Source of the DNA: Holothuria leucospilota
Taxonomy: Eukaryota
Assembly: GCA_029531755.1 (NCBI GenBank)
Contig: CM055969.1
Coordinates: forward strand, 23,623,285 to 23,687,284
Direction: 5' to 3'
Length of the DNA: 64,000 bases
The notes beneath the pieces were generated by a model. That model had not been told where the DNA came from and did not search any database. It saw nothing but the letters and a program-made list of their open reading frames with translations. Every line of letters begins with the position of its first letter. Positions within the stretch are counted from its first letter, which is position 1. The translations under genes and the position numbers were made by a program. This document shows positions 1 through 35,705 of this stretch, piece after piece.

Positions 1-349
1 GGCCTCCTGGAAAATCTGGATCAATTATATGAAATGGGGCAATGACATAATGCTTATTACCTGGCATCTGAATAATAATATAGAGTATGACGCCAAGCAC
101 TTTACATCTATCGTATTTTTTACTAATTTTGAACGAAAATCCAGACGAACAGCTTCCAGCAATTGGGAATGGGCGGGACGGGGAGAGTATAGGTGCAGAA
201 AAATGATAAGACCTCCCAGACAGGTATAGCAAAAGGTGTTTAGGACTAACAAGCGCGTTTTTAGAATGTACACCTAGTTTATGCTATAAAAGTTCACTGG
301 TACGTTGTGCTTATAATGTTCATAAGTGATACAACGTGGATTGTGAGGA

Positions 350-1450
350 TTGCGGGCGAAGCGCGCCGAAATTTGGGGGTATGCTTCAATGCCAAAATGA
401 AAAACCTGCACGCAGGCTCAGCCAGGGGTGGTGCTTTGATTTGCCGACATAGGGGGGAAGTTCCCTGACTGGGGGCCAGCTACTCTAAGTCCCGACAGAT
501 GCAATGGGTTGCCGAACTCAAAATATAAGGCGCCGCAAGCGCTCCAAAAATTTGGGGTTATATTGAATTTTCATTAAGGAAAGTTGAAAAAGTTTGGGCT
601 TTTATTGAAGAATCTGGACAAAACCAAGAAATTTGTTCGGGTGACTGCATGGTCGTCGTCGGGGATTACATTCTTCATCTTACCCATTAAGGATCTCCTA
701 CGAAACTGAAAGATCTTTTCTTACAAAATATGTTTGCCACGATGGCGAGGCTGAAGAAAGAATCTTCCAAAAGTTAGGAAAAAGAGGAAAGAACTTCGCA
801 ACGATGCATTTTCGTGTTTCTCTAGAGTGACGCCTACATGGAAGCACAACATTTGTGGAAACGTTGAAATCCAATGGGGCGTTACCACTAGATAGAAATA
901 TAGATGAAAGCGCGCGTAGCGCGCGAAAATTTTTTGAAGTTATAGAAAGAATCGTTAAAGAACTTACTGGCTACGGGCCTGATAAATAGACGTTTGGAAT
1001 ATTTTCTGAGTATATCTATGTCTTCACCAATATTAGTCTATATAAAATTTTGCGCCATTTTGTGGGGCTAGGAAAAATTTGGGGAGGGGGCGGGCTAAAG
1101 CGCCCTAGCTCCCATAGAACTGTGTCTGGTATATAACTACCTTAATAATATTCATGAGATTGATTGTAAATCGTGACGCATGCGCGCGAAGCGCGCCCAA
1201 ATTTTCACTAAATAAGATTTCCATAATAAAACTTGCATTCAGAATCTGCATCGAGATACTTTCAATTGCCCAACAAACCAACATGCCACTCAAAAAGCCA
1301 GTCTTTTACCTGGTAATTTGTAAACAGCTTTCAACTTCTGCTGTTGTGCTTCTCCGAAAGTTGCTATCGGAAGATATTGATAATAAGAACAACACTGAGG
1401 TTGAAGTTTGAAGCGAGCGGAGCGAAAATTTTGATAGTTTGAGAAGAATT
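350..1450. repeat. Cluster of six copies of a GC-hairpin motif GCGCGC-GWA-GCGCGC followed by SSAAAATTTT
   Basis: Occurrences near 354, 526 (degenerate), 907, 1176, 1410 (degenerate) and again at 52147. Each is a 6-bp GC stem with a GAA/GTA loop followed by an A/T run. Confidence 0.55.
1150..1310. repeat. Dispersed repeat, copy A (second copy at 52130-52460)
   Basis: Shared segments: GTGACGCATGCGCGCGAAGCGCGCCCAAATTTTCACTAAATAAG and ATCTGCATCGAGATACTTTCAATTGCCCAACAAACCAACATGCCACTCAAAAAGCCAGTC. About 90% identical to copy B. Confidence 0.7.
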
Positions 1451-3599
1451 TGCGAAAAAGGGACAGCTGTAACTTGATTTTACGTGAGGAAAATAACGTT
1501 TGGCATTATTCTCACTTGGTTTAGTTGGAAAATATATGCAAAGTTGACATAGGCTCAGTCGGAAAAATGTGCTAGACTGAGATATCAGAAATTCCAACTG
1601 GCATTTCAGATTTTCCGACTATCGTCGCTCTGACGAACTTAAGGGGGGGGGGTGAGACACCCCCCGGTCGCGACGGCCCTGCCTATGATTCATTGTTTGA
1701 AATTTGCGTGCACTAGGGTAATGACGCGTTTCAGTGTGGACCGACGTTCGGATGCAAAAAAAAAATCGCGGCGGTGTGTTCCCGTCTAGTTGAAACGTTT
1801 GTGCACATTAGTCCCCAGCCTGTTCACCTAATATGTGGGTCAACGTCTAAGATAATGCATCCCCCTACCCGACAAACCCGCTGCATCATGAAGAAATATT
1901 CTGGCGGCAAGTCTTGACCCCTGGCTATTATGAACCACAAGGACAAACTGCGATTTTTAGGTCCGTATAGTGAGTATTCAAAGCTATTTTCTGTCAAATA
2001 GAGGCAAATATTACTGAAAGTCTGTAAAAGTGTTTTCAGCGTGTTCAGCCATAACCCACTCACCTGTTTTTTGCAAATTGTAGCCCTCCGTCTCGTCGTC
2101 AACCACATTAATATATTTTTGAAAGGGAGATGATTTAAGTTAGAAGCTCTACCCAATTACCTCTGCAGAAAGATATATTTTGAATACCCTTCTAGAAAAT
2201 TATGGATAATTTTTCTTCTCTTTTTTCTTTATTTGTGTCTTCTTTTCCCCTTTCATTTTTCCGCAGCAACAAGGGGAGGGGCCCCCAGCCGCCCCTTAAT
2301 CAGCGCCTAGGTGTGGCGGTGAGATCTCTATCAATGTTTGCTCAATCTTTTTAGCAGTGCAAGTACAAGAATTTACTGCCTCAAAGAAAATATCTGTGTG
2401 CCTATTGGATGGGGTGGAAAGATGGGTGCATGCGAGTAAGAAGGGGACAGACCATAATCTAACCCCTGCCAACTTTTGAGAAGCTGTTGACGCTCTTGTC
2501 ATAGTAACTCAGACAACCCTTCGAATCTGATCACATACTTACAATTCCAGGAGGAGAACATGGATACGCACTTGGTCAGATTGGGCAATGAGGTAATGCA
2601 CTAACAGACATATTATTTCAAGCATTTATTGTTAAATTTATTTCGAGTAAATATACAATTTTACATGTCAAGACCCTGCTTGAGCAATGCATAAATATGT
2701 ACATAATTTACAAATCTTAGAAAATACAGTTCAATTGGTTTCTTCACCAATTAGCTGTAAAAGTCGGGCAATTATTTAAACTCAAAAATGTTTGAAAGAT
2801 TTTTTTTATTTCTTTAAAAAGAATAACGTTTGTCTCAGATCACATCTACAGTACAACACCCGAATGCATTTTATCTTTTTGAAGAACACTCGGAATAATT
2901 TACAGCAAGTCAGCATACACGGAGGGAAGACAAAGAGTTAACGCTTCTTTTGGAAGGTTTTTGCAGGTAGGAAATGAAATTGTATACCTGGTTCTCTGAG
3001 GTAGGTAAAACAAAATGACTTTCTTTGCATCAATCTCCTTACTTGCAACTTACTTGTCCACATCTTAAGTTACAAAGCAATGAATACAAAGTTCCCATGG
3101 AATACCTACCTCCACCATGCTGATGAAGAGAGACCATTATAACAACTTACCTACCATTATAATAACTCTTAACAAAACTGCAGACTGGATTTTTAAAGAA
3201 GTGGTATGGCTAACCATTCTTCCAGTATGCTCCTAGAGATTTCCAATTTCCAGGCTTAAAAACTGTGTTTGGTAGGATTACTGAAGTACTAACAAAATTT
3301 TCATGATTTTTGGTAAACACATTTAAAGACAGACCCAGCAAATGTTATGTTGACATATAACACATTTCTCATTTTCACATACACTTACTGGAAATAAAAG
3401 ATGGAGTACTTCAACGTATTATGACAAAAGAAGTGAAAGAACATGAAAACATTGTTTTTGTCTTAATAGAAAACAACAAAACACACAAAAGGCATTTTAT
3501 GCATCAAAAGTGGATGCCAAATGAAGAAAAACTAAGATCATAGGCACTGAAGTAAGGAATCATCCTGACTTGAAACTTTGGCGATTTTTGCATGAAATG

Positions 3600-3860
3600 A
3601 TCCAGTGCTGTGGCCGAGTGGATAAAGGCAGTGTCATTTGAAGGGATGAAGCTAAGCAACTGGGAGGTTCAGGGTTCGAATCCCTGACCATGTCAAAGGT
3701 GGGTTTTACAACTATGAGCATTCTATGGTTTTCCCATCTGAACTTTCCTTTCAAAAGCCATCCACCTGAAATTGTAATTTATATATATATAAGCCATATG
3801 AGCTTCTTCCACATTTGTGGTTGCTTAGCATCGTAAAACAACTGCCCTGAATTCACATTT
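3600..3860 (+). mobile_element. tRNA-derived SINE (family A), copy 1
   Basis: tRNA-like head (A box GTGGCCGAGTGG, B box GGTTCGAATCC) followed by a conserved body ending ...TTGCTTAGCATCGTAAAACAACTGCCCT. It is about 85% identical to copies at 24081, 16165(-), 57481 and 58408(-). Confidence 0.8.
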
Positions 3861-6764
3861 ATTATGGCTAAAAGGAAATTCTGGAGTGCACAATGCTTTG
3901 GTACAAATGCATTTTCAATACAGGAATTGTTTCCTAAACTGAGTAATGCTTTAAGGACATTGCTGCCTATCAGTTTTATTCTGCTTCCTTTGAAAGTGAT
4001 ACTCTCGATGCTCTAGAAAACTTTCATGTCTTAAAGATAGGCAGGTGAGTTACTATATGTGCAATTTCAAAACTTAATTTACAAATGAATACTTTTCAGG
4101 AGGGTCACTAGAATTCTATGAGGAATAAAGGCAGGGTTCCTAAAAAGCGAGGGGGATGGAGGGGGTTCAAATCCTGCAATCTGGTGCATTTACTGTCTCA
4201 AAATGACAAACCCAAGCATTACAACCCATTTACAATATTCTACTAAAACATGAGGGAGTTGGACAAGGGGGTTCAGCTGAATCCATTACCCCTTCCCCCT
4301 AACCATCCAGGTTTCATTAAAAACTCTGGATTTACTATGTTTGCTTTTTCCTAGAATCAACTGCATATATAGAAATTAGGCCCAAAGTATGCCTATACTG
4401 GTGAGTCAATTTATGATCACTGCGACAATTTGTACATCTGAAGTGTTCTCCTTTCATGGAGACAAAGTAACCTTATGACATCATTTAAAAATGTAAAGAA
4501 AAAAAAAAGAAGAAAGAAACTTACAGTGTTTGACTTTAAACACACAACACTTACAACATAGTGTAGTAAGCTGCAACTAATAAATCAAGGTTAAAACATT
4601 CACAACAATCACACATAGAAGGAAGTGGAGCTATGGGCTCCCAGGGGCTGCTTCACTTATGACTGCTAGAAATAGTTCCATAAATACAAGTGCCATCTCA
4701 TTCTTAGAGTCCCCACAACTAAATAAATTTTACTTTTAAATCTGTTCTGCAGCTTCACAGATTAGGTAACTAGTTTCTTAACTTTTTCAACCCACCTCTC
4801 CCCTAGTCAATTAATGGCAAAGCCAGAAAATTATTCATACAGGCATACTACCATTCCACTGTGTGAGTGAGCGTGGGGAGGGGGGGGGGGATTTAAATAT
4901 GGAAGGGGCGTACTGTTTTATTCTTAAATATTTCCAGTGGATAGGGAGAGAGTGACTTGGGGTGTAAGACACTTGAGGAGGGATGGCAGTTACCCCCAAG
5001 CCCCCTCCCCCTCTAGCTATGCCACTCTTTCTACATTATTTCTCAACACCCATTCCCTTAACCAGAATTAAGAAAATGTTAGTACACCTTAGAATGGAAG
5101 ACAATAGTACCTGAAAACTGAAAACAATTACAACTACTGACTGACCTTTACCACACCTTCCTTTATTGCTCCAACCACCCTCCGCCTTATAAATTTCTTA
5201 CAATGACCCCACAGGGGCTATATGAAACACTGTGATAACAACTGGTTTTAATGATGTCAGCCATCCATTTCTTACATGTAGGTGGGTCACAGCTTGTTGA
5301 AGCACCACACACATACTTAAAATCAAGTATAAAATCAGAAAAACCTAAATTATTAGTGCTTAATGAGCAATATTTTAAAGATATGCTGTACCTGTGAAAC
5401 TCAAGTCCACCAGTGGTAATGATGAAATCCACCTTACACAAATACATGCAAATTCTACCTAATTTGGGCCTCCACTTGATGAGAAATTTACATGATTTTT
5501 AGGCATAACACCATGAGACAATATCAAAAAGAGCCAGTCTCTCCTGTGGCTAGGTATCTTTCTACGAAAACTTCGTAACTGAGAAATCTAACACATCATG
5601 CTAAAATTTTTCACTATCAGATATAACCAAGGTCTTCTCTGTGAGATGTTTAATACAACAGTACTATTTTTAACAGAAGCATAAAGCAGTTTGGTGAACT
5701 ATTATTTAACTCCTGCATCAAAATATTAGCAGCTGATAGCTTCAATTACCACATTTTCTACAAAGGTAAATATGAAACCAGCAAGTGTGATGTGATGCTT
5801 TCTCATTCATGAAAATTGTTTTAGCTTGGATTGATGAGCATTGCTAGTCTGCCAAAAATTTACATGCAAAACTTAAAAACTTCTAGACTGATGGTGAATT
5901 TACAGTATAATGCTTAATATTTCTTGAAAAAAACATTTTTTGAGAAATCTGACGGAAAAACAAAATCCTCTACTTTTGGTTGAAATGTAAAAACTTCAGC
6001 TGCTACAATCATGAAAATCAAACACACCAACAACAGTTCCAGCAGATAAAGTTCGGACTATTACACACATCAAACATTATATTTGGTCTAAGCTGTTCTT
6101 TTCTCTAAAGTCTGATTTAGTCTACTCTTTGGCTTGGCAAACCTTGTAAGATTTTCCTCATGTGATGAGTGGACTACTTAGTGAGAATTGTGCAGTGACC
6201 TTTATAAGTGTGGGAATTGGGGATGAAACAGGTGGCAAGAAAACCACTTAAAGGGGGCATGACATGACCAAAATAAGTTTGGCATAATGCAAGACTGAAT
6301 ACAATGATGTATAAATATCAATTCACACACAGTAACAACTGGTGCCATTTGGCACAAATAGAATTGAAGAATAATGTCAAAGAATCCAGTTTCGAAAAAC
6401 ACCGCAACAAGTCACCTGACTTTTTTGACGGAACCAGCAGCACAAACACTGCGCTATATAAGGAGGTGTATCTAGATGTGGAACTAATGTAACACAGAGG
6501 TAAAGGTACTTAAGAGACTACATAAAAAGGCTTACATCACAATACCCGCGTAGCATATACAGAGCACAAAGCACGGACAGCGCATACGCATGACCGTGTT
6601 TTAGCTTCCTTACATAAGCCTCAGTCTGAACAAAAAGAATGTGGTCGGTGTGATGTACAGAGCAGCTATGCACATGTATGGACAGTACATAACAGGCGCA
6701 CCTATACTCTGTGTACTGTTGAGTGACGGTGTTAACGCAAATGCTAAGCAGTCACTTACTGACC

Positions 6765-27060: not shown

Positions 27061-27675
27061 TTGGAGTAAACACTTAGGCCTTTGGCCTAACGTTAGGTTA
27101 GGGTTGTGTTCATGGCAGTCTTACGTTTCTTGTTGGAGTTTACTTTTGGTTTCATAAATTATCATCAACCCTTCACAGAGACAGTTCACATTCTACTGAG
27201 CAAATGGTTGTCTGAAACTAGAAGACGGAATCTCCAGATAATCAAACTCACACGTCGAACGTCAAACGACGATACGATACATGCTGCTGGAAGTTGAAAG
27301 TTCATTGCAACATTCGACCGTACCGTACCTGTACCTGCACAGACTACGTATGCATGCGCATAATATTCGTACAGGAGTATTACGTAATACATAAACAACA
27401 TGCGGACGACAACGTGATATCACGTCGAGTAAGTAAAGTTATGGCGCGCCGTCTGTACAATTACAAGAGAAGACATGTTATGTTATGTTATGTTATGTGA
27501 TGTTATGTTATGTTATGCCCTTCAGTCCAAACCCCTTTACTTATGCAAAGCTAACCAAAACCAACGTCAAAACGGCAGTGTTTGCACTAATCGTTAGTTA
27601 CACGATCTCAAGGTTGTCCGGGTTCAAAGGCATCGCTAAGTCGATCCCTTATAATATATATACTTTATGTATATG

Positions 27676-27682
<7 letters not shown>

Positions 27683-27772
<90 letters not shown>
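27683..27772. repeat. (TA)n microsatellite, tail of Penelope-like copy 1
   Basis: Read directly from the sequence. Confidence 0.95.
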
Positions 27773-28439
27773 AGTAAACGTAACAGACATCACAACAGGA
27801 CACAAAATATATACCAGAGAAGAAGTCCAGTGCAGAACTAAAACGTTTATTCTCATATTTTCGGACGGCAAAGCGTCCTTCTTCAGGCCACGTACTAATA
27901 TACAATAAAACCAAGAACACTCCACAAGCATTTAAAAACGGAGAAAATAAACACAGAGAAGAACGAACGCTCTAGTACACAACTAGTTAAAAGCTAATCC
28001 TAAAAGACACAAAACGAGACAAAGAAACCCAAGACAACTCAAAAGAACACCTAAGAACTTAAGACCTGGATAAAAAAAAAGCCTAGAATACTAAAACGCA
28101 GGAGACAAGGATAGAGTCTACGAAGGCGTCTGGGAACCCAGCAACGGATAAAAACCTAAGGGAGGCCAAAAGAAGAAAGGGGGAAAAGGGGGAGAGAAAC
28201 AGAACTAAAAACATAAAAATAAAAAAAAATAAAAGGGTAACTAGAAGTTAAAATAGAAAGTAAAAGAAAAAGGAAAAATTAAAAAGGAAACAATTAAAAG
28301 AAAAATAAAATAAAATGAAAAACAAATCGAAAAGGAAGTAAAACCTAACGACGAAAAAGGTTGAAAAATTAAAGGCAAGAAAGAATAAAATAACAGCAAA
28401 TAAAAACACGACTTAACGAACTTTCCTAAAATGTTTATT

Positions 28440-28885
28440 TTGGCAGTAAAAACCATCATCTGTATTAATTAGTCTCCAAGGGGTGTCCAGTTTCCAAATC
28501 CATTCCCTTTCTTCAGCATTTAGCAGTTTTTCCAATTTCCCCAAGTTACGATCAACTTTGAAAGTACAATCAACAATCTGAACCTTAAAGGACTCGCAAT
28601 TATGAAAAATAAGATGATCATAAAGAATTTTGAGTCTAATTTGTTTGATGTACCAGCCCTATAAAGTCTTAAATCACTGTGCCCATTAATCCTTATACGA
28701 AAATTATTAGACCTACCCACGTATTGCAACTGACAGACAGGAAATGAAATAACATAGATAAGCCAGAGTGATTCACAAGTAGTAGAAGAGTTCTTACATT
28801 TAAAATTCTTACCTGACAAAATCAGAGCACACAAGCAAACCACAAATTTGACACCTGTTTTTGGCACAACAACGGCAAGGATCAA
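28440..28885 (-). pseudogene. Penelope-like GIY-YIG endonuclease domain, frameshifted
   Basis: ORF 28520..28885(-) carries C..C and LIYVISFPVCQLQYVGRSNNFRIRINGH, with GIY-YIG-like spacing of YVG..R..NGH. The C-terminal GIY-YIG motif EREWIWKLDTPWRLIN lies in a -1 frame at about 28440-28520. Confidence 0.6.
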
Positions 28886-29294
28886 CGGCCATGTTCAAAT
28901 TAATTCTGCTTGGGTCCAAAAGTTTAGCCCGACATAGGGACCTTTTAAGATTGAGAGGCTGGCTGAAACTTATATAACTGGGGCAGCAGGGACAGCTAAC
29001 TTCAATCTATCCGACTGATGCAGGAGAGGTAAAAACTTGGTGAGAATCCTCTTAATGTCAGGTAAAGCGGGGTGGTACTGAACGGTGAAAAACAAAGACT
29101 TTCCTTTAGAAATTTTAGGGGTCATAGAGGTAGTGAAATGTTTATATGCTCGGCCCACTTATTGTTGAACCCTACTCCCTATTATAGCAACGCCTTGCAA
29201 GGTAGTCACTCAATTGGCGACACCTTTTACGCGCTGTCTAAAGACTAGAGCAAATTCTTAAAATGCGTAAGGCCTGACTGTAAGGAATACTGCG

Positions 29295-29516
29295 TTAAGT
29301 ATGGTTTGGGTGGCAACTTATAGCTAGTAAACACTGATGAGTATCAGTAGGCTTAGTATAAAGGTCAGTAACGATTCCACCATCCTGGGAGGTCGATACC
29401 TGTACGTCAAGACAATGAACTAAACTTAGAGAATAATCGCACGTAAATTTAATACAGTTTTCTAGGTTTTTTGAGTTTTCTTGGTTTGCTTTGTCTGGTT
29501 TTGAGTCTTTTAGCAT
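29295..29516 (-). pseudogene. Penelope-like RT C-terminal (thumb) fragment: ...DGGIVTDLYTKPTDTHQCLLAISCHPNHT
   Basis: YxKPTDT-x-x-L-x-x-S-CHP is the conserved motif at the end of Penelope-like and related RT domains. The ORF abuts the inverted pLTR at 29510. Confidence 0.55.
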
Positions 29517-29884
29517 AAGCTTTTAACTTATTGTGTACTAGAGCTTTCGTTCTTCTCTGTGTTTATTTTCTCCGTTTTTAAATGCTTGTGCAGTGTTCTT
29601 GGTTTTATTGTATACAACTACGCAGTGTTGTAATTTAAGAGTCACGACTCAAGTCACTTCTTCTCAAAATGATAGTGACTCGAGAGAATTCAGGAGTAAT
29701 TTCTGCACTGAAATGGTACAGTGACTCGAGTCAATGACTCGACTCGAGTCACTTAAAAGTTTGACAATTGGTCACTCGAGTCACGAATCTACTCACTCGA
29801 TTACAACTCTGCTAGTACGTGGCCTGAAGAAGGACGCTTCACCGTCCGAAAATTTATTTTAGTACTTGCACTGGACCTCCTCTA

Positions 29885-29977
<93 letters not shown>
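29510..29977 (+). mobile_element. Solo Penelope-like 3'-terminal region (pseudo-LTR) with (TA)n tail, inverted relative to copy 1 and direct relative to copy 2
   Basis: 29510-29625 and 29800-29885 are the reverse complement of 27790-27990 and are homologous to 33002-33217 (..ctgaagaaggacgcttcaccgtccgaaaattta.. versus ..ctgaggaaggacacaggagtgtccgaaatata..). Like those two regions it is followed by (TA)n. A 175-bp insert with GTGACTCGAGTCAC-type palindromes sits at 29626-29800. Confidence 0.6.
29886..29977. repeat. (TA)n microsatellite, tail of the solo pLTR
   Basis: Read directly from the sequence. Confidence 0.95.
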
Positions 29978-29979
<2 letters not shown>

Positions 29980-30148
29980 CCTCTGTTTACCCACGTGACA
30001 AACTTCTGTCTTATAAACCAAAGGTTGAAAATTCTCGAATCCCCCTTGTCTTTGATTATTCTCCCAAAACTGAACGGGTACATAAAACCATACGTTCAGA
30101 TAACAGTATTCTTAAGTCTGATTCTTCTATATCTGAGTTAATCAATGA

Positions 30149-30553
30149 CCCCCTTTAACTGCCAGACGTCAACCCCCCAGTCACAAAACATTACTCACAT
30201 CTTCCCGACTGCTTGGTACCCGTAACATAGGCAACGCAAAATGTAGCAAACCGAGGTGTCAGGTCTGTCATTTTATTATTACAGACAAAGAATTTACCCC
30301 TCCCGCCACAAAGTGCATTGTTCGTCCTCCTCCCCTTGACTGCGATACACCCAATGTGGTTTACTTACTCTTTTGTAATATTTGCGACAAAGGCAACTAT
30401 GTCGGGCAGACAAGCAATAAATTCAGATTTAGATTCAATAACCATAAGAAGACTATTCAGGATAAATCTGTTAATTTCCCCGTTTTTAAACATTTCTGTG
30501 GTGAACCGAATCATTCCATTTCAAATCTAAAGTGTATTTTGCTCGGTTCAAAT
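30149..30553 (+). CDS. Penelope-like GIY-YIG endonuclease, N-terminal part, cut off by the hAT insertion
   Basis: CSKPRCQVCHF (the C-x-x-C...C-H knuckle seen in Penelope endonucleases) followed by NVVYLLFCNICDKGNYVGQTSNKFRFRFNNHKKT. ORF track 30356..30583 confirms the frame. Confidence 0.75.
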
Positions 30554-32843
30554 CAGGGTTGGGAAGTAACGAGTTACAAGTAACGCCGTTACTGTAACGA
30601 GTTACATTTTGTGTAACGGAACCCTGTAACGAGTTACATTTGCATTTCAGTAACGGAGCAAGTAACTAGTTACAATTCTGTGTAAAAGTAACTGTAACGG
30701 CGTTACATTTGGGTCCCGTTACTTTCCCGTTACAAATAGTCAAAATGACCACAAATTGCATTTTCTTTGAGCTAATAACAGAATAACAGAAAATTTTCAA
30801 ATTGATGACACTTTGGTAGTAAAATGTAAAATTATTTTCGATATAGGCTATTTATCATTCATCGCTATTATCGACGTCGCCCTCACCGACATCAAATTTT
30901 ATTCACGATTAGAATCAGAAGTTGATATTAGATGCACACGCTGCAGGCTTACAGGCCGGGCCACTTGATTGTCTATTGAACCAGGGAGTTGTCAAATGGC
31001 AACTCCCTGATTGAAATAAGTTTAAAATTGATCTGTATGTCAAAATACTTATTAGACAGATCAATGCTTATTATCCATGAGACCTATTTGTGCGATTATT
31101 TGAAAAATACTGAACGGTCCTCTAAGGCTCAGCTGACTTTATGTATTCTAAGTAAAGTCAACTGGGCCTTGGTTTACTCATATTGTCCTTTAGAGGACAC
31201 AGTGGAGACAGTGTACCGTGAGAAACGGGTTGGCCCATGGGCATTCAAATACCAGCTTACTTTGAAAGTTTAATCATTGCCTCTTGAGACGTTAGGGCTG
31301 GACCCGTGTTCACCCTATCCGAGTCGGAGCTAACTGCGATTCTAGATTCCCGAATCTTTCCGAGCATGGTACTACTCAGGATCCTCAAATTTCTGCCAGT
31401 TTTGATTCCAATGGCACCAATTCCGAGACCAGTCTTTTTGCCAATGTATATCATATCACACATACAGATGTTTTAATTCTATCGTACATGTCCACCATTA
31501 ATTAACAAAGTCATCGTTTGTACTCACTTCCATAGCCTGGCCTCCTGAGTAATTTAGTTGATTGTATGTGACAATACCTTAGATCTGTACATTGTGCACA
31601 AATGGAACTTTAAACACTTTTAATGTAACTTTCATATTTGAGAACTCGGCTGGAATGAACTCCGAGTCCGAGTCCAGTTACATCACATTCCGTAAAAATT
31701 TCGATTCCGGAACCTTCTATCCCGGGCAAATTCCTAATCTAGAAAAACGCTCTTGAGACCGGCATTAAGCTAACCGAATCCGGACTCTTGCGTTGGAGAC
31801 CAGTAAATCTATACGGTGCCAAGCGTTGGTAAACACCGTGCATCCATTTATGCATCTAATTTAACATGTATGGTATCTTTATTTGATGAATCAAACGTAT
31901 GAATTTAGGCTATATCATATTCTTTTCAATGTCCGTAACTCCTTACACTGGAATAATAGTACGGTTAATATACAAAAACAGCAGAATATTGAAATGGTCA
32001 ATGGCGTTAAAAGTATCCTAACAAAGCTAATTGGAAAGAGAAGTGTCCGACTTAAAGCTTTACCTATTGTAAAGGGAAAGTGAATTATGTGCACATGATC
32101 TGCATGTATAAACTGCATAGTATCACCATTTCTATGCACTGTTTTATATCGACACAATGTGAAACTTGAAATTTATGGGGAAATATCACTTAGCCCAACC
32201 TTAGCGGTGAGGTTTCAAAATTTTACTGCTAACAAATGTATTCATCCTCTTATTATACCATATTTATGCTCTTGAGGGGTGAAGACTTTACTGCTGAAAC
32301 AACGCTCTTCCCCTTTCCGGCATAGCCGCTAACCTCTCTAAATTAGCCGACTGTGTGATGGGAGTATAAAGATTTCAACCCTCAGAGAAGTACTTTGGTA
32401 ACTGGAAAAGTTTTGGTTATAACCATATTCCTCTAACAAATAGTTTGCGTAAGCTCCGACACAGTATCATGATTCGCTGCTTCATGTTGAGCATTAGGAG
32501 CCTCTGCGACAATGCCCATTGAAGATCAGCTATAGCTTCATTGACTTTCTTTGGGGAACACCTAAGGATAACCGGCACAAATGAGGTGTCGGTCGTCTCA
32601 TGTGCCCCCGTCTTACTAACTCATTATGCCCCCCCCCCCCTCCATTTCAGGTACCGAGGTACCGTATATTCACCTTGAAGTAACGAGTTACTTTTGAAAT
32701 GTAGCTAGTTACTTTTTAGTCAAAAGTAACTGTAACTAGTTACTTTTTCAACATTGTAACTAGTAACTGTAACGAGTTACAATTTTACGGAATTAACTGT
32801 AACTATAACGAGTTACTTTCAAAGCGTAACGGGAACAACCCTG
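30554..32843. mobile_element. Non-autonomous hAT-superfamily DNA transposon (2.29 kb) with 8-bp TSD GTTCAAAT
   Basis: Terminal inverted repeats CAGGGTTGGGAAGTAACG / CGGGAACAACCCTG. Perfect 8-bp direct repeat GTTCAAAT at 30546-30553 and 32844-32851. Subterminal GTAACGAGTTAC-type repeats at both ends, resembling Ac/Ds subterminal repeats. No transposase ORF inside. Confidence 0.75.
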
Positions 32844-32851
32844 GTTCAAAT

Positions 32852-33001
32852 TACCAATCTGTCAACGAACGCCTCAAATCTGAGAGCAAGTGGGTCGTTA
32901 AACTGTCAACTCATATTAGGGGCCTGAACAAGGACCTTGGCATCTTAAGTGACTTCCCCTTTGTAATTAATAACCCTTCCCAAGCTGCCAAGGTTAACTA
33001 A
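32852..33001 (+). CDS. Penelope-like GIY-YIG endonuclease, C-terminal part, resumes in frame after the hAT element
   Basis: YQSVNERLKSESKWVVKLSTHIRGLNKD... carries the terminal GIY-YIG motif E-x2-W-[IV]-x-K-L-x-T-x3-G-L-N. The frame is continuous with 30149-30553 once the element and one TSD copy are removed. TAA stop at 32999-33001. Confidence 0.7.
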   Translation, partial: YQSVNERLKSESKWVVKLSTHIRGLNKDLGILSDFPFVINNPSQAAKVN

Positions 33002-33214
33002 ACCTGCTTGTCTATCATTTGTTTTGGTTTGTACTTGTTTTACCGTTAAGTTTGAAAAATGCTGTAATTTTTCACTTTCCATTTTGCGCTGAGGAAGGAC
33101 ACAGGAGTGTCCGAAATATACGCTGTTTTTATCGTATCTGTGCTCGTATTATGTCATCTTGGGAATGTGTTTTATTATTTGCTATTTTACATGGAGCATA
33201 TGTGGAGTATTCTC

Positions 33215-33216
<2 letters not shown>

Positions 33217-33310
<94 letters not shown>
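33217..33310. repeat. (TA)n microsatellite, tail of Penelope-like copy 2
   Basis: Read directly from the sequence. Confidence 0.95.
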
Positions 33311-33313
<3 letters not shown>

Positions 33314-33609
33314 TGAAACTTGGAACCCTGTCCCCACATGGTCTGAAGGTTAGACTTAAACTTTTATAACTCAATAATTCCTACATTGTTGTTACCCGTG
33401 TCAACCACTTAACACTGTCCGTTTTCCTAGCCGATTTCCCGTGCCCAATTCTATTGTGTGTTTTCCAATTTGTACGTTCGGCCGTGTCAACAATCAGTTG
33501 ATGAAGGGTTTAAACCCTAAACATCGTGCAGTTTTTCACAAACTTTAAGCGCACTATTTACTAATTATTCTTTGACCTACTTACTTCATAACTGCTACGC
33601 ATTACTCTG

Positions 33610-33744
<135 letters not shown>

Positions 33745-33844
33745 GCATCAGTGGAGAACTAGTGCTGTTCCAGAAATAGGTGCCTGCTCAGGAGGTGAAT
33801 TGTGAGTGCCTCATATGGTGTTTGAACGAAGGCCAAACCAACTT

Positions 33845-33915
33845 GGCTTCATAGCTCAGTGGTTAGAGCGTCTGCACTAGCAAGCGGGAGGTCCCGAGTT
33901 CGAACCCCGGTAGAG
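33845..33915 (+). pseudogene. tRNA-like sequence, a degenerate tRNA or SINE head, flanked by (TA)n tracts
   Basis: Perfect D arm (GCTC AGTGGTTA GAGC) and a good T arm (CCGAG TTCGAAC CCCGG), but the anticodon stem does not pair and the acceptor stem has mismatches. This looks like a pseudogene or SINE head rather than a functional tRNA. Confidence 0.5.
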
Positions 33916-33959
33916 TCAACTTCTTTTCACCTCAGCCAGATTTTCCAGTGTCACAGTTT

Positions 33960-33962
<3 letters not shown>

Positions 33963-34039
<77 letters not shown>
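33963..34039. repeat. (TA)n microsatellite
   Basis: Read directly from the sequence. Confidence 0.95.
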
Positions 34040-34042
<3 letters not shown>

Positions 34043-34969
34043 TCCCGTCGTCGGGCTTATCTCTTCACCAGCTTTTGCTGAGTCTGTATGCAGGTTTTAC
34101 AGTGGTAACAATTTTCCTGCAAAATTTCGGCGCGCTTCCCGCGCAATTCTCACAAGCGAAGTTATATCGTCTATGAATATTATTAGCATAAAAATTCCAG
34201 TGAATTATTCTAGCCAAAGCTAGGTGAAGGTCAAACTTAGATGCTGGGTATCAAGGGGTTTTCATATAGTAATCTAGTAACTTGAGTAACATTCGTAACG
34301 CGATGACTATATGGTTTGAAGCTAAATTTAATCGTACCCAAATTTATTCCAAAATTTATTTTTTCTGTTCATGCAAAATTTCCTTTCAAAGTAGAAATAC
34401 GATAATGACCATCTGAATTGTGAACTGTGAAGAGATTGGTATGCTCTCAGTGTCATTCAAAGTCCTGCTCAAAGCTCCATGTTAGTGTTCCCATTTTGCT
34501 ATTTCCTCGGACATTTGGGGAATTTCCCTCTGGGTCCTAACAAAATCATACTGGACCACACCAAGACTGCCTAATGGCAGCTCCTGGTCCTCTCGCCGTT
34601 CGCAAAGTACACAACTGTTCACCTGCGCTTGCGAAGCTGAAGAAGCATCATCGTGATCATAGTCTTGTTCCCTTCACTTGTGGAGACTTTCCACGTCTTT
34701 CTATTGCAAAAGGAGGCGAAAATGTCCATCACAAGAGTGAAATTTTTGCCCTCTTCACGCGTATGTGCACACGTAAAACCGATACCTTTAAGCTGTCTGC
34801 GGTAAGCTTGAGATATCATCCCCTGTAGTTCCCGCAAACTGTAATCATATGGTGGCTCTACTGTCTACAAACATAATTATCTTCTTCGGTGCCTCCCTAT
34901 GAGGTGCCGGTGCCCCCTTATGTAAGAATTCCTGGCTACGGGCCTGCTGTTACAACTCATAATGTAGTA

Positions 34970-35462
34970 AACATTGGCCAATAATGTATCACTAACCGAT
35001 AATGTATCACTAACCAATAATGCAGTAACTTTTTAACCGATAATGTATCAACTCAATACCGACAATGTAGTAAAATAGTTTTAACCGATAATGTATTACT
35101 CTCTAAATGTAAAAGAGTGAATTTCACTCTTCGACGATTGCCTACAGTGACCACTTTCTGTTTAGAGTGGAATTTTACTCTGCCCGGAGTGGTAATTCAC
35201 TCATTTGGAGTGAATTACCACTCCGGGCAGAGTGAAATTTTCACTCGAAGAAAGAGTGGTCACTGTAGGCAATCGTCGAAGAGTGAAATTCACTCTTTTA
35301 CATTTAGAGAGTACCATTTGAACGATAATGTAGTAAAAGTTAATACATTATCGGTCAATTTTTACTACATTATCGGTTAGTGATACAGTTATCGGTCAAG
35401 TTTACTACATTATCGGTTAATGATACATTATCAGTCAATTACTACATTATCAGTCAACACCC
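34970..35462. repeat. Near-perfect 490-bp palindrome (foldback or hairpin element) with inverted ACCGATAATGTA sub-repeats
   Basis: Central arms at 35117-35210 and 35216-35320 are almost exact reverse complements around a 5-nt loop. The outer regions at 34975-35110 and 35330-35460 carry CCGATAATGTA(T/G) repeats in opposite orientations. Confidence 0.85.
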
Positions 35463-35603
35463 TCTTTCAGTAAGGAACCACTAAGACTTCGAGTTTCTGG
35501 CTTTCTGGTTATTTTGTGCTTTCAGTGACAAAATTTCTGACCCCCACAAAAAGGCGAATAAGAGAATGTTCCTTTGGTAAAATCACTGCAGCCTAGAATT
35601 TTA

Positions 35604-35606
<3 letters not shown>

Positions 35607-35691
<85 letters not shown>

Positions 35692-35705
35692 TATATATAT
35701 ATATA
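35607..35705. repeat. (TA)n microsatellite
   Basis: Read directly from the sequence. Confidence 0.95.

Follow-up and report, generated by a model that had tools for sequence, protein, structure and literature searches.

We analysed a 64,000-nucleotide stretch of the sea cucumber Holothuria leucospilota genome (assembly GCA_029531755.1, contig CM055969.1, positions 23,623,285 to 23,687,284 of the forward strand; hereafter referred to as the window), in which a 2,290-bp transposon of the hAT type interrupts the open reading frame (ORF) of a Penelope-like element (PLE). The insertion is real, and it is an ordinary nested transposon: the PLE was in place before the hAT-type element, whose arrival duplicated 8 bp of PLE sequence. 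Taken as a whole, the locus is very probably a truncated PLE of the Neptune/Nematis type that lay in a (TA)n microsatellite and was later hit by a non-autonomous hAT element mobilised in trans.

The insertion and its empty site

The nested structure consists of the following parts.

29979–30553, + strand: left part of the 5′-truncated PLE copy (copy A), 79–93% identical to P0011/P0001 in tblastn
30546–30553, unstranded: left copy of the target-site duplication (TSD), GTTCAAAT, which is single in the paralogous empty site L001 1322–1623
30554–32843, unstranded: non-autonomous hAT-type element, 2,290 bp, no coding capacity
32844–32851, unstranded: right TSD copy, GTTCAAAT, an exact match to the left copy
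32852–33001, + strand: right part of the PLE ORF, with the helix carrying the catalytic E200, ...GLN (N215), the C-terminal tail and a TAA stop; 100% identical to P0026

Excision of the element together with one copy of GTTCAAAT joins the flanking sequences in frame as ...KCILLGSN/YQSVNERLKSESKW... (in longer context, ...NLKCILLGSN/YQSVNERLKSESKWVVKLSTHIRGLN...; the slash marks the junction). A database search with the reconstructed protein gave uninterrupted relatives, mostly from H. leucospilota and marine assemblies, and in protein alignments P0001, P0011 and P0026 cross the junction without a gap or an extra residue. P0026, an uninterrupted H. leucospilota protein, is 100% identical to the window sequence to the right of the junction and 94% identical to its left. 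The insert is absent from all nine uninterrupted relatives examined.

The empty site is also seen at the DNA level. In a paralogous copy (L001, nucleotides 1322–1623; 88% identical), GTTCAAAT is present once and TACCAATCTG comes immediately after it; the sequence reads GGGTTCAAATTACCAATCTGTCAAC, of which the portion after GTTCAAAT equals the window sequence after the right-hand copy. By this sequence comparison, L001 is an empty site in the classical sense and confirms the insertion. The 8-bp sequence was part of the host element and became doubled when the transposon entered, and therefore the host element is the older of the two. Within the window, neither the inserted element nor its terminus was found a second time.

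An earlier note on this DNA, made from the letters alone, had placed the element at 30554–32843 between perfect 8-bp repeats, and all of its positions proved exact. It had also claimed that excision restores the frame, with which the uninterrupted protein and DNA paralogs agree, and that the Penelope-like insertion preceded the hAT insertion, an order borne out by the single GTTCAAAT of the empty-site paralog and the duplicated PLE sequence of the window. The faults that the note itself had named, an inexact duplication and a frame lost after excision, were checked for: the duplication is exact and the frame is kept.

The interrupted endonuclease domain

The insertion point, after residue 189 of the reconstructed protein, splits a GIY-YIG endonuclease (EN) domain, separating the half that carries the Y/Y/R/H residues from the E200 helix and N215. 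The left part of the PLE copy holds the end of the linker between the reverse transcriptase (RT) and EN, a CX4CX2C motif and the endonuclease half with GIY...YIG, CCHH and R/H; its last 8 nt are the target site. In tblastn searches with P0011 and P0001, residues 227–284 fall in frame 3 and residues 284–418 in frame 2, and the copy has a 1-nt frameshift near 30149–30152.

We aligned 34 sequences of the family. R149 and H153 are invariant, and C86, C91, C94, C130, C133, Y126, Y138, H169, H176, R196 and E200 are nearly so. The CCHH motif reads VVY(124–126)-LLF-C130-NI-C133-DKGN-YVG(138–140), with two cysteines directly between GIY and YIG, and the CX4CX2C linker motif reads C86-SKPR-C91-QV-C94. 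The predicted structure has a predicted local distance difference test (pLDDT) score above 92 across the endonuclease domain, and P0054, a distant member, passes the Pfam GIY-YIG model over positions 3–74 of 78, a stretch that reaches across the point of interruption. Nothing relevant came out of a profile search against PDB sequences. Compared with the catalytic domain of I-TevI (PDB 1LN0), the PLE EN has 20% sequence identity and carries the CCHH and CX4CX2C zinc-finger-like motifs in addition. On the strength of the family alignment and the fold comparison, we judge the GIY-YIG domain to be complete with its R, H, E and N residues. The earlier note had predicted such a domain after excision, and this holds although Pfam places it below threshold.

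Type and state of the PLE copy

An exhaustive search gave 12,205 representative clusters at E≤1e-10. P0011 (467 aa), 87% identical over the whole query, combines RVT_1 (31.6 bits against a cut-off of 29.6), HTH_animal and EN in one ORF. Full-length relatives (P0180, P0181 and others) have 800–900 aa with an RT and a C-terminal EN, and the query matches their C-terminal half. A DKG motif lies N-terminal of the RT in seven of the seven full-length relatives read, in the form KPADKGGAIV or K(K/S/R)ADKG(G/S)AVV. The PLE criteria of Craig et al. (2021; PMC8557442) include a DKG motif N-terminal of the core RT and a CCHH motif with two cysteines between GIY and YIG; according to the same work, Neptune, Nematis and Naiad have the CX2-5CxxC linker and Penelope/Poseidon lack it. 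Because the host has this linker, we classify it, by its motifs, as a C-terminal EN-bearing (EN+) PLE of the Neptune/Nematis type. The Penelope-like host of the earlier note is right as regards PLEs at large, in view of the RT-EN relatives, the DKG motif and the EN motifs, and needs narrowing to Neptune/Nematis, as the host is not strictly Penelope/Poseidon.

The PLE copy and its surroundings have the following further features.

29887–29977, unstranded: (TA)n microsatellite adjoining the PLE where it is truncated at its 5′ end (Tandem Repeats Finder (TRF) period 2, 45.5 copies, 100% matches)
33002–33217, + strand: 3′ untranslated region (UTR) or tail of the PLE up to the downstream (TA)n, with a conserved 3′ block that aligns with L003, L001 and L035
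33086–33123, + strand: minimal hammerhead-like motif in the PLE tail, GCG-CUGAGGA-A-GGACAC-AGGA-GUGUCC-GAAA-UAUA-CGC
33218–33311, unstranded: (TA)n microsatellite adjoining the PLE at its 3′ end (TRF period 2, 47 copies, 100% matches)

The window copy comprises the last ~240 codons and the 3′ UTR, starts at residue 227 of P0011 right after the (TA)n array, and has no RT. It is dead. Given the truncation, the missing RT and the frameshift, the restored frame represents sequence continuity and not the disruption of a functional gene. The paralogs L001b, L003 and L035 likewise end in TA repeats, and Naiad and Hydra elements have been reported to insert preferentially at (TA)n, a bias tied to the linker motif (PMC8557442). 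The copy shares with the Neptune/Nematis PLEs (Arkhipova 2006; Craig et al. 2021, PMC8557442) the CCHH motif, the CX2-5CxxC linker, the R/H/E/N residues, the insertion in (TA)n and, as a candidate only, a minimal hammerhead-like motif in the tail. It differs from them in being 5′-truncated, without RT and frameshifted, and the GxKF/Y motif is kept only loosely in its relatives (G-L-N/S-F/Y).

The hammerhead-like motif was found by eye and with a regular expression. In six sequences, its core is conserved and helices I and II show compensatory changes: 90.7% of the cells are paired, compared with 28–50% when the partners are slid, and seven of the nine pairs have changed on both sides. The motif has the architecture described for the minimal hammerhead ribozymes (min-HHR) of metazoan PLEs (PMC4209133). 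These features are suggestive only, and mark the motif as a candidate PLE ribozyme.

Termini and coding capacity of the inserted element

The ends of the element are organised as follows.

30554–30561, + strand: left terminal inverted repeat (TIR), CAGGGTTG, which extends as CAGGGTTGGGAAGTAACG at the left end only
30562–30740, unstranded: subterminal region of the left end, containing GTAAC(G/T)AGTTAC palindromes as well as GTAAC/GTTAC half-sites (17 of the latter in the terminal 200 bp)
32674–32835, unstranded: right subterminal region with the same GTAAC(G/T)AGTTAC and half-site motifs (13 half-sites in the terminal 200 bp)
32836–32843, − strand: right TIR, CAACCCTG

The perfect TIR is 8 bp long. 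Beyond it, the left end continues with GGAAGTAACG and the right end, in reverse complement, with TTCCCGTTAC; the reverse-complemented right end reads CAGGGTTGTTCCCGTTAC, and the 18-nt sequence CAGGGTTGGGAAGTAACG is confined to the left end. Where 0.18 would be expected, the window holds 11 occurrences of the 12-mer GTAACGAGTTAC (with at most one mismatch), and ten of these lie within 30566–30673 and 32680–32816. The density of GTAAC/GTTAC half-sites is 85 and 65 per kb in the left and right terminal 200 bp, respectively, as against 2.1 per kb in the element interior and 1.9 per kb elsewhere in the window, a terminal enrichment of 35–45-fold. In the right subterminal region, TRF also reports a 37-nt unit at 32725–32819. 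The subterminal repeats are presumed to be transposase-binding sites.

These results modify two descriptions in the earlier note. Its CAGGG-type TIRs are correct as regards the termini CAGGGTTG and CAACCCTG, but only 8 bp are perfectly inverted and the 18-nt terminus that it quoted belongs to the left end only. Its ‘Ac/Ds-like’ subterminal repeats are indeed dense at both ends, and the term ‘Ac/Ds-like’ is only an analogy for the presence of such repeats. The subterminal motif of Ac is AAACGG, unlike the GTAAC(G/T)AGTTAC palindrome of the window element.

Each reading frame of the element contains 40–55 stop codons, and the longest open stretch has 97 codons. No Pfam match was found in its six frames. 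Searches by tblastn with 120 hAT proteins, or with the hAT remnants of the metagenomic loci L024 and L030 (see below), gave no match in the element or the window. The element encodes nothing recognisable and is non-autonomous.

Assignment to the hAT superfamily

Membership of the hAT superfamily is well supported by sequence features, because the 8-bp TSD, the short CAG-type TIR and the subterminal repeats occur together and because metagenomic elements sharing the terminus contain remnants of the hAT dimerisation domain. The hAT-type assignment of the earlier note stands on these grounds. As superfamily hallmarks, an 8-bp TSD and short TIRs of typically 10–25 bp have been given (PMC3942097), and the structure of the element fits them except for its rather short TIR.

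To find relatives, metagenome contigs were scanned for the 18-nt terminus CAGGGTTGGGAAGTAACG. It occurs at 27 metagenome loci, of which ~19 continue with a GTAACG(C/A)(G/A)TTAC..GTAAC architecture; the other ~8 show no continuation beyond the 18-mer and were set aside as chance matches. A match in a viral collection (L032) is an intergenic palindrome of a 58% GC phage and is unrelated. Identity to the terminus of the window element reaches 36 of 40 nt in L017 and L020 and 35 of 40 nt in L007, and L024 has an identical 23-nt prefix. L024 is a complete element of 1,442 bp, with 12-nt TIRs (CAGGGTTGGGAA and TTCCCAACCCTG) and GTAAC/GTTAC clusters at both ends, and a 91-codon ORF inside it matches Dimer_Tnp_hAT at 18.7 bits (E 0.0015). 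The remnant in L030, 313 nt inside the shared terminus, matches Dimer_Tnp_hAT at 26.9 bits against a cut-off of 21.4; it is homologous to the L024 remnant (65% identity, E 3e-19) and has the same position and orientation relative to the terminus. The hAT evidence from these two loci consists of transposase remnants, not of a full transposase. By analogy with Ds and Ac, the L024 and L030 elements look like internal-deletion derivatives that keep the transposase C-terminus.

We compared the 8-mers that abut five complete elements. They match at 8/8 positions for the window element, 6/8 for a miniature inverted-repeat transposable element (MITE) in L007, 5/8 for a MITE in L008, and 0/8 for both L005 and L024. 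We count the first three as flanked by 8-bp repeats, in line with hAT. The missing TSD of L005 and L024 may be due to recombination between copies or to chimeric assembly of the metagenomes.

One candidate for an autonomous partner was favoured at first, since its ORF reads toward the shared terminus:

L007 81–2421, + strand: near-intact-looking hAT transposase gene (587+129 codons), 0.8 kb from a 679-bp MITE; the relation is one of adjacency only

The product of this gene (587+129 aa) has a weak DUF4371 match and an above-threshold Dimer_Tnp_hAT match, and its closest relatives are SCAND3/FAM200A/ZNF862-like proteins of ants; a phmmer search with it against PDB found nothing. A second, inward-facing terminus at L007 3219 (CAAGGTTGGGAAAGTTAC) makes 3219–3897 a self-contained 679-bp MITE. 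We rejected the transposase as the partner because this MITE is separate and because homologs of the transposase lack the terminus. Such adjacency of gene and MITE is an easy trap in partner assignment.

Several observations weigh against the account given here. The L007 contig carries a MITE beside an unrelated hAT gene, and L033 and L034, longer contigs with homologous transposase loci, lack both the terminus and GTAAC clusters; among the metagenome contigs scanned, none was found to hold an autonomous hAT copy that ends in the shared terminus. The L024 remnant scores below the Pfam cut-off (18.7 against 21.4 bits), and two of the five complete elements (L005 and L024) have no TSD at all. 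The 8-bp perfect TIR of the window element is below the usual 10–25 bp, its relative L024 having 12 nt. The window element is the only H. leucospilota copy examined, which bears on the mobility of the family in this host. As for the PLE, Pfam GIY-YIG scores the window protein at 19.7 bits, against a cut-off of 22.6, and over its N-terminal half only, and Rfam finds no hammerhead in the tail, either at the gathering threshold or at E≤10.

Some of these points would also suit an element from another superfamily with 8-bp TSDs (P, Merlin, Mutator-like or Zisupton): the element encodes no transposase, its perfect TIR has only 8 bp, no full-length transposase is tied to the terminus, and no TSD is visible in two of the five complete elements. 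This alternative is nonetheless improbable, as hAT dimerisation-domain remnants lie inside elements that share the 18–40-nt terminus and the subterminal architecture (L024, and L030 above the cut-off), and as the terminus starts with CAG, not with CATG (P) or GG (Merlin and Mutator-like elements, MULEs). The CAG start is that of hAT elements such as Ac, hobo and Tol2. Arensburger and colleagues are said to have described, in 2011, the terminal sequence of hAT elements as 5′-YARNG and the target consensus of the Ac group as nTnnnnAn. We take the CAGGG start of the window element to fit YARNG and the T at position 2 and the A at position 7 of GTTCAAAT to fit the target consensus, the latter being weak, from a single site.

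Probable course of events and competing explanations

Under the preferred reading of a PLE later hit by a hAT element, a Neptune/Nematis-type PLE would have entered the (TA)n microsatellite by target-primed reverse transcription, leaving a 5′-truncated copy of the last ~240 codons and the 3′ tail. As established for hAT transposition, a transposase supplied in trans would then have bound the subterminal repeats and excised the hAT element elsewhere. The element would have integrated at GTTCAAAT in the dead PLE copy, between the R/H and E/N halves of the GIY-YIG domain, where 8-bp staggered cleavage and repair would have duplicated the target. That the mobilising enzyme was a hAT transposase, and that the integration happened at the window locus itself, is what we infer.

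The same order of events could have been played out at another locus: the hAT element may have hit a PLE master copy elsewhere, and the composite may then have been retrotransposed, with 5′ truncation, into the (TA)n of the window. The PLE copy is indeed a young retrocopy, 94–100% identical to P0026, and the hAT element lies wholly inside it. Such a route is less parsimonious; all nine uninterrupted relatives are without the insert, and 2.3 kb splitting the EN would inactivate the master in cis. We regard it as quite unlikely.

PLEs are known to carry introns (PMC4209133), and removal of the segment restores the frame, as it would if the 2.3-kb interruption were a spliceosomal intron retained in the PLE ORF. 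This idea deserves next to no credence: GT...AG boundaries are missing from all nine equivalent excision registers, the ends of the segment are inverted and flanked by a direct 8-bp duplication, its subterminal repeats are of the transposon type, and close paralogs are without it. A repeat misjoined into the PLE copy during assembly is just as implausible, for although the region is rich in repeats, flanked by microsatellites and judged from the assembly alone, a chimeric join would not give an exact 8-bp host duplication abutting matched inverted termini.

The nested pair, a hAT element inside a PLE, has counterparts in known systems. Like other non-autonomous hAT elements (maize Ds of the Ac/Ds system, and the BuT2-MITEs and Mar of Drosophila), the window element has an 8-bp TSD, short CAG-type ends, short subterminal repeats clustered in the ~200 bp at either end and no transposase gene, and its relatives L024 and L030 resemble internal-deletion derivatives with a C-terminal transposase fragment. 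It differs from Ds and the others in its 8-bp perfect TIR and in a 1.9-kb interior without similarity to any transposase. Both partners are of known kinds and nested insertions are commonplace; at most the families are uncatalogued ones for a holothurian. The locus means little beyond annotation: the order of the nested insertion is cleanly dated (hAT after PLE), and a holothurian repeat library gains a Neptune/Nematis-type PLE family and a non-autonomous hAT family that is well defined and has a consensus terminus. As an internal control, the reconstruction of the frame usefully shows both annotations to be right.

The shared terminus in other hosts

What may interest a wider circle is only that elements of unrelated hosts have a near-identical terminus, which could reflect horizontal transfer or conservation of the ends. 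The terminus CAGGGTTGGGAAGTAACG (up to 36 of 40 nt) and the GTAAC/GTTAC architecture are found together in ~19 contigs (among L005–L031) from several unrelated metagenomes, and this conservation across hosts is unusually strong. A distinct family among these contigs (MDSQ/MDSP records) continues as ...GCATTACTTAGTAAC...TTACTTTTCCCAGTAAC. The contigs differ in composition: one group has 26–31% GC with ant-like neighbour genes and another has 36–43% GC, compared with 35–39% GC in the window. The AT-rich contigs are probably from insects, because the gene beside the L007 MITE is closest to ant proteins. It is a tentative idea, which we consider doubtful at present, that a single hAT lineage has kept its terminal 18–40 nt and its subterminal architecture almost unchanged in hosts as different as a sea cucumber, probable insects and the MDSQ/MDSP group. 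If true, the near-unchanged ends would mean horizontal transfer across phyla or an unusually strong constraint on ends bound by the transposase.

Neighbouring repeats

The nested pair lies in a region crowded with TA repeats. Six long arrays occur within 8 kb (27650–35705), with repeat insertions between them:

27650–27772, (TA)n array
29887–29977, (TA)n array
33218–33311, (TA)n array
33614–33744, (TA)n array
33963–34039, (TA)n array
35607–35705, (TA)n array

The region looks like one large TA microsatellite that has been hit repeatedly by TA-specific elements. A second, divergent PLE in inverted (head-to-head) arrangement occupies 27773–29886, between two (TA)n arrays. Its arms, 27891–28044 and 29469–29622, are 91% complementary, and a fragment coding for RT/HTH on the minus strand (29184–29492) is 36–50% identical to P0011, P0016, P0020 and P0036. 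This arrangement fits the ‘complex tandem/inverted insertions’ described for PLEs. Each arm has one of two nearly identical hammerhead-like motifs (CCUGAAGA-A-GGACG...CGUCC-GAAAA; 27845–27896 on the minus strand and 29814–29865 on the plus strand), in which helix II shows a compensatory change from A-U to G-C relative to the motif at 33086–33123; Rfam does not report these two motifs.

PLE copies were also met with on other contigs. On the 1.6-kb contig L001 (1130–1630), a PLE copy is followed by a TA-rich stretch and then by a second 5′-truncated copy, which belongs to a closer family (88% identity to the window) and adds a further case of tandem PLE insertion at TA repeats. On L002, a 9-kb ENA contig, two long ORFs (446 and 439 aa; 235–3121, plus strand) without precomputed Pfam matches lie upstream of a PLE endonuclease fragment.

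Within the window, a tRNA-like sequence at 33844–33920 (plus strand) stands between two (TA)n arrays. Rfam scores it as tRNA at 40.6 bits and ARAGORN reports it as ‘tRNA-???’ because its anticodon loop is abnormal; rather than a working tRNA gene, the sequence may be a pseudogene or a short interspersed element (SINE) derived from a tRNA. Just before the last (TA)n array, 34978–35457 is made up of tandem repeats with units of 18–48 nt that contain ATTATCGGT/ACATTATCGGT in both orientations.

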